NCBI GenBank assembly: GCA_029856155.1
Contig: JAHQWL010000034.1
Coordinates: 1-47,248 of the forward strand
Direction: 5' to 3'
Origin: Promethearchaeia archaeon
GTDB taxonomy: Archaea > Asgardarchaeota > Lokiarchaeia > Sigyniarchaeales > SOKP01
DNA length: 47,248 nt
The notes below the pieces were generated by a model, which saw nothing but the letters and a program-made list of their open reading frames with translations, ran no database searches and was not told the DNA's origin. Positions 16,556 through 44,425 of this stretch are shown piece after piece. Each line of letters opens with the position of its first letter. Position 1 is the first letter of the stretch. Position numbers and translations under genes: made by a program.

Positions 16556-16666
16556 AGCGGGGTGGGCTAGCCTGGTTTATGCCGCAGGGCTCATAAGTCG
16601 CAGATATTATTCCCATCTCATCGAGAAACCCTGAGATCGTTCGTTCAAATCGAACCCCCGCTACCA
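16556..16666 (+). tRNA. Initiator tRNA-Met (CAT) with a 32-nt intron at 37/38 (16596-16627); CCA encoded
   Basis: A1-U72 acceptor AGCGGGG/CCCCGCU; CAGGG-CU-CAU-A...A-CCCUG with three G-C pairs; T-arm GUUCG-UUCAAAU-CGAAC; relaxed BHB. Confidence 0.93.
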
Positions 16667-43736: not shown

Positions 43737-44054
43737 TTATTCTTGAATAACAATATTTTCTTCAGGAAATCCAAGATCAATCAAGAATTTTTTCAATTTA
43801 AACCGATGATCTCCTTGAAGTTCGACTTCATTATCTCTTACAGTTCCACCAGAAGCACATTTTTTTTTTGCTTTTGTTAGGATATTCTTAAGATTTACTT
43901 CAAAATTTCCAACGAACGTGATTACAGTAACAACCCTCCCCCATTTCCTCCTAGAGTTAGAGATTATTATTTGCTGTTCATCGGCGCTTAAACTATCACA
44001 TATACATAGCTCTTTTGGAAAACTACATATAGGACAAATCTCGTCGTCTTTAAT
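43737..44054 (-). CDS. Translation initiation factor aIF1 (SUI1/YciH), apparent AUU start
   Basis: Not in the ORF track: (I)KDDEICPICSFPKELCIC...RRKWGRVVTVI...KKKCASGGTVRDNEVELQGDHR...LGFPEENI; in-frame TAA at 44061-44063, two sense codons upstream of the ATT. Confidence 0.93.
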   Translation of the reverse strand: MKDDEICPICSFPKELCICDSLSADEQQIIISNSRRKWGRVVTVITFVGNFEVNLKNILTKAKKKCASGGTVRDNEVELQGDHRFKLKKFLIDLGFPEENIVIQE

Positions 44055-44425
44055 GCTGTCTTATCACAACCTTTATTGTAAAAACTTTTTAAAATTTAGT
44101 TCTAAAAAATAATAGAATAAAATCTTATAAAAATCTTTTTTATTTTGGAATGAAACTTTTATAAAAACAATACTCATTCAATTTTTTAGTTTTGTTAATG
44201 CCCATTTGTGGAATTCAAATTTTGAAATTACGTCTAACAGAAATTTAATGAGATAAATGAAGTAGATTTTAATTGCTAATTTCTGTATAAGTTAATTCAG
44301 TTTTCAGACTAAATTTTCCAAAATTTAGAATCGACCTTCCTAAGCAAAAAATATTTATAGAAAAATTTTTATTATTTATCAATAAGCTTATTCTTAAACT
44401 TAGATTATAAATGTGATACGATAAA

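Follow-up and report, generated by a model that had tools for sequence, protein, structure and literature searches.

We analysed a window of 47,248 nucleotides (nt), positions 1 to 47,248 of contig JAHQWL010000034.1 of the Promethearchaeia archaeon assembly GCA_029856155.1, and focus here on its gene for the archaeal translation initiation factor aIF1, located on the minus strand at 43737..44054. Conservation of the region and comparison of its substitution patterns indicate that translation of aIF1 very probably starts at an AUU codon (ATT, 44052..44054, minus strand). Moreover, we lean slightly towards a functional feedback of aIF1 on its own synthesis, which would operate through this poor start. 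The source is a Loki-type Asgard archaeon of an AT-rich lineage (30% GC), represented by an assembly of 4.1 Mb that is 97% complete. An earlier note on this DNA, made from the letters alone, had placed it among the Asgard archaea, which agrees with the titles of its close relatives in public records (Promethearchaeota, the current name for Lokiarchaeota).

The aIF1 start codon and its conservation

The coding sequence comprises 105 codons counted from ATT and a TAA stop (43737-43739), and encodes a CPIC...CIC zinc knuckle and a SUI1 domain. The product matches the Pfam SUI1 family (PF01253) with 66.9 bits against a cut-off of 25.5 (E = 2e-18, aIF1 residues 26-97), and NCBIfam NF002096 with 113.6 bits against a cut-off of 98, profile positions 2-101 of 102 corresponding to aIF1 residues 4-103. 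Since the NF002096 alignment begins at residue 4, the N-terminus is complete only with translation from ATT or beside it, within two residues. The knuckle is of the archaeal type (CPIC-x7-CIC, residues 7-19), stands N-terminal of the SUI1 domain, and is kept across the Lokiarchaeia relatives and most Asgard families. The complete aIF1 frame with an N-terminal knuckle described in the earlier note is therefore upheld by the translation and by both profiles. This is the sole SUI1 gene of the 4.1-Mb assembly, in which no second aIF1 gene with a normal start was found.

On the minus strand the region reads AAAGGTTG TGA TAA GAC AGC ATT AAA GAC GAC GAG ATT TGT CCT ATA TGT. Tandem in-frame stops (44061..44066, minus strand; TGA at 44066-44064, TAA at 44063-44061) stand three and two codons before ATT, and the first in-frame canonical codon after it is TTG at codon 86 of 105, 85 codons downstream. 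The statement of the earlier note that no ATG, GTG or TTG lies upstream in frame is thus correct, and the list of open reading frames (ATG, GTG or TTG starts, at least 30 amino acids) contains no entry in the aIF1 frame.

The ATT is conserved in relatives. All 22 other species of the genus carry GGTTGTGA-N9-ATT AAA GAC GAC with the same in-frame TGA, which is part of GGTTGTGA and in frame in nearly every family member. From GenBank genomes, 80 further aIF1 loci of Promethearchaeota were recovered, 82-99% identical; of these, 78 have a readable 5' end, and all 78 lack an in-frame ATG, GTG or TTG before the knuckle. The homologous codon in 107 alignable loci is ATT in 97, ATC in 3 and ATA in 1, the remaining 6 loci belonging to more distant genera with insertions or deletions. 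The earlier note had held that its reading would fall if close relatives uniformly used ATG at 44052-44054; in none of the 101 close loci is the codon canonical. At the same loci, the two genes flanking aIF1 start at ATG in 94 of 97 cases for one and 100 of 104 for the other.

Substitutions on the two sides of ATT point to the same position. Among relatives, the preceding codon is AGC, AGT, AAC, CGT, AAA, ACA or CCT, seven spellings for six amino acids, a pattern typical of non-coding sequence. The codons that follow ATT show only changes among GAC, GAT, GAA and GAG, which are synonymous or exchange Asp and Glu. With a variable codon on the 5' side and codons that evolve like coding sequence on the 3' side, coding very probably begins at ATT. 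In a single-contig congener, G006 (L024, G006:C1:1383613-1386870), aIF1 contains a stretch of about 100 N, and the 25 codons at its beginning match sequence located 353 kb away; a genuinely split gene was rejected there in favour of a scaffolding or assembly artefact at the N-run gap.

The ATT is preceded by a recognizable Shine-Dalgarno (SD) signal. The assembly does not include the 16S rRNA 3' end, and that of a congener, which ends in GGATCACCTCC, was used instead; it makes GGAGGTGATCC the ideal SD sequence. The element GGTTGTGAT (44063..44071, minus strand) is complementary to this 3' end and has a GTGAT core ending 8 nt before ATT. The SD-like GTGAT of the earlier note is therefore confirmed, and is the core of a longer conserved element. 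Compared with the ideal GGAGGTGAT, 7 of 9 positions match, with two internal mismatches. Of 77 distinct upstream regions, 76 share an unchanged GGTTGTGA, and 9 nt and then ATT or ATC always follow it. In this genome, the sequences preceding 1,400 unambiguous canonical starts show an 8- to 38-fold enrichment of GGTGA, GTGAG, AGGTG and GTGAT, and the spacing from GTGAT to the start ranges from 3 to 9 nt, with a mode of 5 nt (40 of 78) and 8 nt in 5 of 78. The aIF1 signal is real but doubly suboptimal, combining a 7/9 match with a spacing of 8 nt instead of the 5-nt optimum.

Some relatives (G074, G120, G080 and G064; loci L260, L263, L286 and L287) carry a diverged second aIF1 paralogue, about 63% identical, in which a perfect SD, GAGGTGA, is followed after 8 nt by ATT AAA, the same near-cognate architecture. 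An extra aIF1 copy in G007 is interrupted by two TAA codons in frame, which may make it a pseudogene.

Near-cognate starts in the genome, the genus and the phylum

An AUU start could be real and yet unremarkable if this lineage routinely used AUU, AUA and AUC behind a well-placed SD, with aIF1 subject to no feedback. This is the strongest alternative to the feedback that we propose, and we regard it as a serious possibility, though an unlikely one. Its support comes from a genome-wide count anchored on perfect SD 5-mers, in which the codon located 3-9 nt from the SD was scored. Candidates were required to have an open reading frame of at least 100 codons, an in-frame stop no more than 10 codons upstream, a positive coding score, and neither an upstream canonical codon nor one among the next 20 codons. 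The scored codon was ATG in 109 cases, TTG in 32, ATT in 28, ATA in 13, GTG in 9 and ATC in 4; AAT, TAT, TTA and TTT were found twice each, and most of the other codons listed are the second codon of an ATT or ATA gene. A control with complement k-mers and equal anchors returned ATG 4, ATT 2 and ATA 2. About 45 strict SD-led candidates hence start at ATT, ATA or ATC (two at CTG), which amounts to about 23% of clear SD-led starts. The optimal 5-nt spacing is found at 23 of the 41 ATT and ATA starts versus 27 of the 109 ATG starts.

Pfam confirmed 9 of 10 near-cognate candidates, the domain beginning 3-15 residues after ATT or ATA; in 8 of them it begins at residues 3-10 on profile positions 1-3. 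The first canonical codon of the confirmed candidates lies 25-106 codons downstream. They encode ApbA, Ras, eL21, rubrerythrin, ThiF, DNA_binding_1 (MGMT-like), hexapeptide, DsrE and Pop5 proteins. Examples of near-cognate genes are L112 (C102:38460-39383), L114 (C57:22291-22599), L116 (C52:86628-87365) and L120 (C75:55207-55563) on the plus strand, and L113 (C88:63853-64461) and L117 (C14:53977-54300) on the minus strand. Given that near-cognate codons make up about one fifth of SD-led starts, an AUU start alone is no evidence for regulation. The earlier note was right that aIF1 requires a near-cognate start, with ATT at 44052-44054 far ahead of any other candidate, but not in treating AUU as a distinctive signature, considering the roughly 45 others.

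Orthologues of four of these genes (L127-L245; about 29 congeners each) show how such starts behave across the genus. The start of eL21 is ATA in 11 congeners, ATC in 6, ATT in 4, CTG in 3, TTG in 3 and ATG in 2, and that of Pop5 is ATA in 17, ATC in 6, ATG in 3, GTA in 2 and CTA in 1. ThiF starts at ATT in 19, ATC in 7, ATA in 1 and ATG in 1, and the DNA_binding_1 (MGMT-like) gene at ATT in 13, ATC in 9, ATG in 5 and GTT in 2. In all four genes the start position is fixed, 5-6 nt behind GGTGA. This interchange of ATT, ATC, ATA, CTG, TTG and ATG at a fixed position provides good support for these codons as probable starts and for an expanded start set in the lineage, as routine use of AUU would predict.

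What routine use leaves unexplained is the frozen aIF1 codon, which is ATT in 97 of 101 loci without a single canonical flip, while the others drift. Canonical replacement occurred in 14 of 116 cases in the four other genes versus 0 of 101 for aIF1 in close loci (p = 1e-4). The retention of ATT in aIF1 while other near-cognate starts drift thus supports what appears to be a gene-specific constraint.

The survey of Lokiarchaeia and of other Asgard families, which the earlier note had suggested as a check, did uncover further near-cognate aIF1 starts. In Lokiarchaeia, aIF1 starts at ATG in only about 3 of 21 genera; the other genera use ATT or ATC (most of family f1), ATA (f5, f7, genus g5 and probably g13), TTG (f6 and several of f2) or GTG. 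Outside Lokiarchaeia, the sample comprised 40 aIF1 loci from 19 Asgard families; two are ambiguous, and 10 of the 40 have no in-frame ATG, GTG or TTG between the upstream stop and the knuckle. These 10 come from five families: CTG stands behind GGAAGGTG in f9 (2/2) and behind CAGGAGA-N9 in four genomes of f12, two of them with TGA two codons upstream, whereas ATA is found behind AAGGAGG-N9 in f14 and f20, and in one genome of f19. In the same genome sample, the controls aIF1A (0 of 33, three loci, L366-L368, being left out of the count) and eL21 (0 of 36; ATG 32, GTG 2, TTG 2) show no non-canonical start. The difference between aIF1 (10/40) and the controls (0/69) gives a Fisher p of 2e-5 by genome and 0.046 by family. 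Routine use of AUU does not account for CUG and AUA at aIF1 in these five families, where aIF1A and eL21 are canonical. Repeated near-cognate starts with differing codons, alongside canonical controls, are what selection for a weak aIF1 start would be expected to produce. Finally, as aIF1 rejects AUU complexes in vitro, some dependence of its own mRNA on the aIF1 level is hard to avoid, which also speaks against an AUU start without feedback.

The aIF1A gene starts at TTG in all 7 genomes of f12 and also in f13, f14, f15, f22 and f25, and at ATG in the Lokiarchaeial family studied here. In the present genome aIF1A occurs twice (C25:28143-28349 and C64:5725-5931), and each copy starts at ATG.

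The aIF1 leader and other candidate starts

Upstream of the SD lies a conserved AT-rich block of 40 nt, AAAAAAGATTTTTATAAGATTTTATTCTATTATTTTTTAG (44102..44141, minus strand), whose columns are 90-100% conserved in the 77 distinct upstream regions, more than the following spacer and the adjacent coding third positions. A TATA-like TTTTATAA lies within the block, at 44125-44132. The block is probably the promoter, that is, the B recognition element and TATA box plus the stretch up to the transcript start, the role of the TATA and the start position being assigned from typical archaeal promoter geometry. The predicted transcript would start near 44102, so that the SD would fall within a leader of about 48 nt. 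Conservation over the whole of 44102-44141 exceeds the needs of a TATA box. A nearer TATA-like sequence, TTTAAAAAG, located 26 nt before the out-of-frame GTG described below, would give an 8-nt leader without SD; it was rejected as less conserved and part of an indel-prone zone before the SD. RNA structure was likewise discarded: the minimum free energy around the start (-12.4 kcal/mol) is like that of shuffled sequences (z = -0.86), and across 77 relatives a 7-bp hairpin, UUACAAU/GUUGUGA, has numerous mismatches, a 3' arm that never varies, and no covariation. No Rfam family was found in the aIF1 leader or intergenic region at E <= 1.

The window also encodes an initiator-type tRNA-Met(CAU) (16556-16666, plus strand) that has a 32-nt intron after position 40 and is recognizable as an initiator by A1:U72 and by the three G-C pairs of its anticodon stem. 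ARAGORN recovers it only with introns allowed, its default run returning no tRNA in the window. No special AUU-reading initiator tRNA was found among the 28 tRNA genes recovered, a set that is incomplete, includes no Ile tRNA and has this standard initiator as its single Met tRNA. With a normal initiator tRNA-Met(CAU) in the window, AUU must be read through a third-position mismatch.

Translation might instead start at the second Ile codon, ATT at 44037..44039 (minus strand), directly 5' of the first Cys, or at both Ile codons, so that the protein would begin at the zinc knuckle. We consider this very improbable. The codon is near-cognate (ATT, ATA or ATC) in all relatives, one public product predicted by NCBI PGAP (99 amino acids, MCPLC...) was called there, and some Asgard aIF1 proteins have only 2-4 residues before the first Cys. 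Its third position, however, varies synonymously as in an ordinary Ile codon, whereas the first ATT is nearly invariant, and it lies 23 nt from the SD core versus 3-9 nt genome-wide. In addition, the K-D-D-D/E codons between the two Ile codons show coding-like substitutions, and the family profile aligns from residue 4.

A further possibility is initiation at an out-of-frame GTG (44065-44067) within the SD-like element, which opens a mini open reading frame, GTG ATA AGA CAG CAT TAA (44050..44067, minus strand), whose stop overlaps ATT by one base (AT-T-AA). Ribosomes starting there would reach the aIF1 frame by a +1 frameshift at CAT-TAA or by re-initiation at AT-T-AA. The GTG-N12-TAA/TAG geometry with its one-base ATT overlap is shared by genera g1, g12, g14 and g15, whose second codons differ (AAA, AGC, AAC and AGT), and an analogous case exists in genus g5, where ATG or TTG stands one base out of frame, 10 nt before ATA. 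Several features make such a start very improbable: the GTG lies inside the SD-like element itself and lacks a separate SD at a suitable distance, the P-site codons (CAU, UAU) vary and cannot re-pair on the +1 AUU, the mini-peptide shows no conservation, and the geometry has disappeared from genus g16, which starts at ATC, and is missing from families with an AAGGAG SD. Re-initiation would, moreover, still need AUU. A programmed +1 frameshift of the prfB/RF2 type was rejected, the site having neither its own SD nor P-site re-pairing and its geometry being lost in g16. The out-of-frame GTG may matter as a competing start.

In genus g5 (L026 and L029; G030 and G034), aIF1 reads GTGAG[A/T] TGA AAA AAC ATA CCA AAA GAC, without an in-frame canonical start, and ATA is the likely start. 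The sister genus of g5 has GTG AAA AAA ATA CCA in frame. A one-base insertion may have moved the start to ATA in g5, or the out-of-frame codon may act as a competing start.

A pseudogene or an error of sequencing or assembly, suggested by the missing canonical start and by the errors that do occur in metagenome-assembled genomes (MAGs), such as the N-run in a congener copy, is effectively refuted: the same ATT arrangement in 22 of 22 congeners and 78 GenBank loci excludes a sequencing error, and this is the only aIF1 of a 97% complete genome, an intact frame under purifying selection with the same ATT in more than 100 independent assemblies.

A proposed feedback and its known counterparts

The data above strongly imply that aIF1 starts at AUU behind an imperfect SD placed at 8 nt, and that a standard initiator tRNA is used. 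In the proposed mechanism, initiator tRNA-Met(CAU) would read AUU at 44052-44054 with a third-position mismatch, and the imperfect SD GGUUGUGAU, located 8 nt upstream compared with a 5-nt optimum, would position the ribosome. The factor would then destabilise initiation complexes on non-AUG codons, AUU included, an action on the 30S subunit that we infer from orthology with the Sulfolobus solfataricus and Pyrococcus abyssi proteins (PMC4705826, PMC6237735). Abundant aIF1 would lead to less initiation at its own AUU and scarce aIF1 to more, and such negative feedback could hold start-codon stringency at a set level. The same level would also fix the leniency on which the AUU-, AUA- and AUC-start genes, about one fifth of those led by an SD, would rely. 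We tentatively extend this scheme to an Asgard stringency homeostat, in which aIF1 would be made from AUU, AUA or CUG depending on the family and would co-regulate AUU-, AUA- and AUC-start genes, including eL21; this broader version is conceivable, but we would not call it probable.

The gene has the attributes expected of an autoregulated fidelity factor. It encodes such a factor, is present in single copy, and has a poor initiation site of its own. The poor site also appears to be kept beyond the genomic background, with the caveats of kinship among genomes, of only two control genes and of p = 0.13 within the genus.

Several considerations weigh against the AUU start coupled to feedback. 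Both the start site and the feedback are read from sequence. AUU and AUA starts are common in this genome, also in housekeeping genes like those for eL21 and the RNase P protein Pop5, and the prior for an AUU, AUA or AUC start, about 20% per SD-led gene, means that special regulation need not be invoked. The genus sample alone (0 of 22 versus 14 of 116 canonical) is not significant (p = 0.13), and since related genomes are not independent, the p-values overstate the differences. The frozen ATT could reflect another constraint, its T forming the mini-frame stop together with the following AA, and the whole 5' region of aIF1 is unusually conserved. The transcript start is a prediction, and one downstream of GGTTGTGA would break the SD model. 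At the level of the phylum, the comparison rests on two control genes only. Lastly, aIF1A (L329-L365) starts at TTG or GTG in 24 of 38 Asgard genomes; weak canonical starts are hence not unique to aIF1 and may be a wider habit of Asgard initiation-factor genes.

Gene annotation is directly concerned by these results. The prediction of the earlier note that gene callers would miss or truncate aIF1 holds for some pipelines, which report products of 84, 90, 76 or 70 amino acids that lose all or most of the zinc knuckle, but not for NCBI PGAP, which annotates the ATT start in relatives: 105-residue products beginning MKDDD, that is, with ATT read as Met, exist in many Promethearchaeota MAGs. As callers truncate aIF1 and dozens of other AUU and AUA genes are at risk, Lokiarchaeial proteomes are likely to contain wrongly annotated N-termini. 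PGAP records already make the start call public; what is new here is the genome-wide control, the comparison of drift between orthologues, the phylum survey with two control genes and the promoter footprint. Public records (P0001-P0007 and others) list the archaeal aIF1 of these MAGs as 'stress response translation initiation inhibitor YciH', which is the name of a bacterial protein and derives from the NCBIfam model. Several MAGs of the same genus were deposited as Odin-, Hod-, Hermod-, Thor- or Heimdallarchaeota, and even as Nanopelagicaceae.

Bacteria (IF3) and eukaryotes (eIF1) are both known to limit the synthesis of a start-codon fidelity factor through the poor start of its own gene. 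If the proposed feedback is true, archaea would join them, so that such autoregulation would be common to all three domains, and Lokiarchaeia would draw on a wider set of start codons than standard gene callers consider. The frequent AUU, AUA and AUC starts make one ask how stringency is set in these organisms, and the feedback would bear on the origin of stringency control at eukaryotic start sites. The hypothesis is directly testable in existing archaeal in vitro initiation systems. The literature searched, which covered few subscription journals, contains no report of a non-AUG start or autoregulation of any archaeal aIF1 gene, nor of widespread AUU or AUA initiation in Asgard archaea or Lokiarchaeota.

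The closest archaeal proteins, aIF1 of S. solfataricus, P. abyssi and Methanocaldococcus jannaschii, have been studied biochemically and structurally; they belong to the same family, share its architecture and have been shown to discriminate against non-AUG or AUU codons in vitro (PMC4705826, PMC6237735). With S. solfataricus components, aIF1 makes the 30S complex reject AUU mRNAs (PMC4705826), and the P. abyssi factor has a role in start-codon fidelity (PMC6237735). The bacterial counterpart is infC, which encodes IF3 and for which an AUU start with translational autocontrol was described by Butler, Springer and Grunberg-Manago in 1987, as cited in PMC4705826. In both cases, the gene for a factor that rejects non-canonical starts itself starts, or would start, at AUU behind an SD and retains this codon, and the predicted logic is identical: less factor, more initiation at AUU, and therefore more factor. 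Unlike that of infC, which was proven by an AUU-to-AUG mutation, the feedback of aIF1 is a prediction from sequence comparison. IF3 is also an unrelated protein, though both factors bind near the P site of the small subunit, and AUU starts are extremely rare in Escherichia coli but common in this archaeon, which makes the codon a less specific signal here. The eukaryotic factor eIF1 is a direct orthologue with the same SUI1 domain, whereas the N-terminal zinc knuckle belongs to the archaeal protein. Autoregulation of eIF1 through an AUG in poor context is attributed to Ivanov et al. (2010) and Martin-Marcos et al., cited in PMC6237735 and PMC4705826. As with aIF1, the initiation site of eIF1 is suboptimal and conserved as such. 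The eukaryotic gene keeps AUG in a weakened flanking context reached by scanning, whereas aIF1 would rely on a near-cognate codon placed by an SD.

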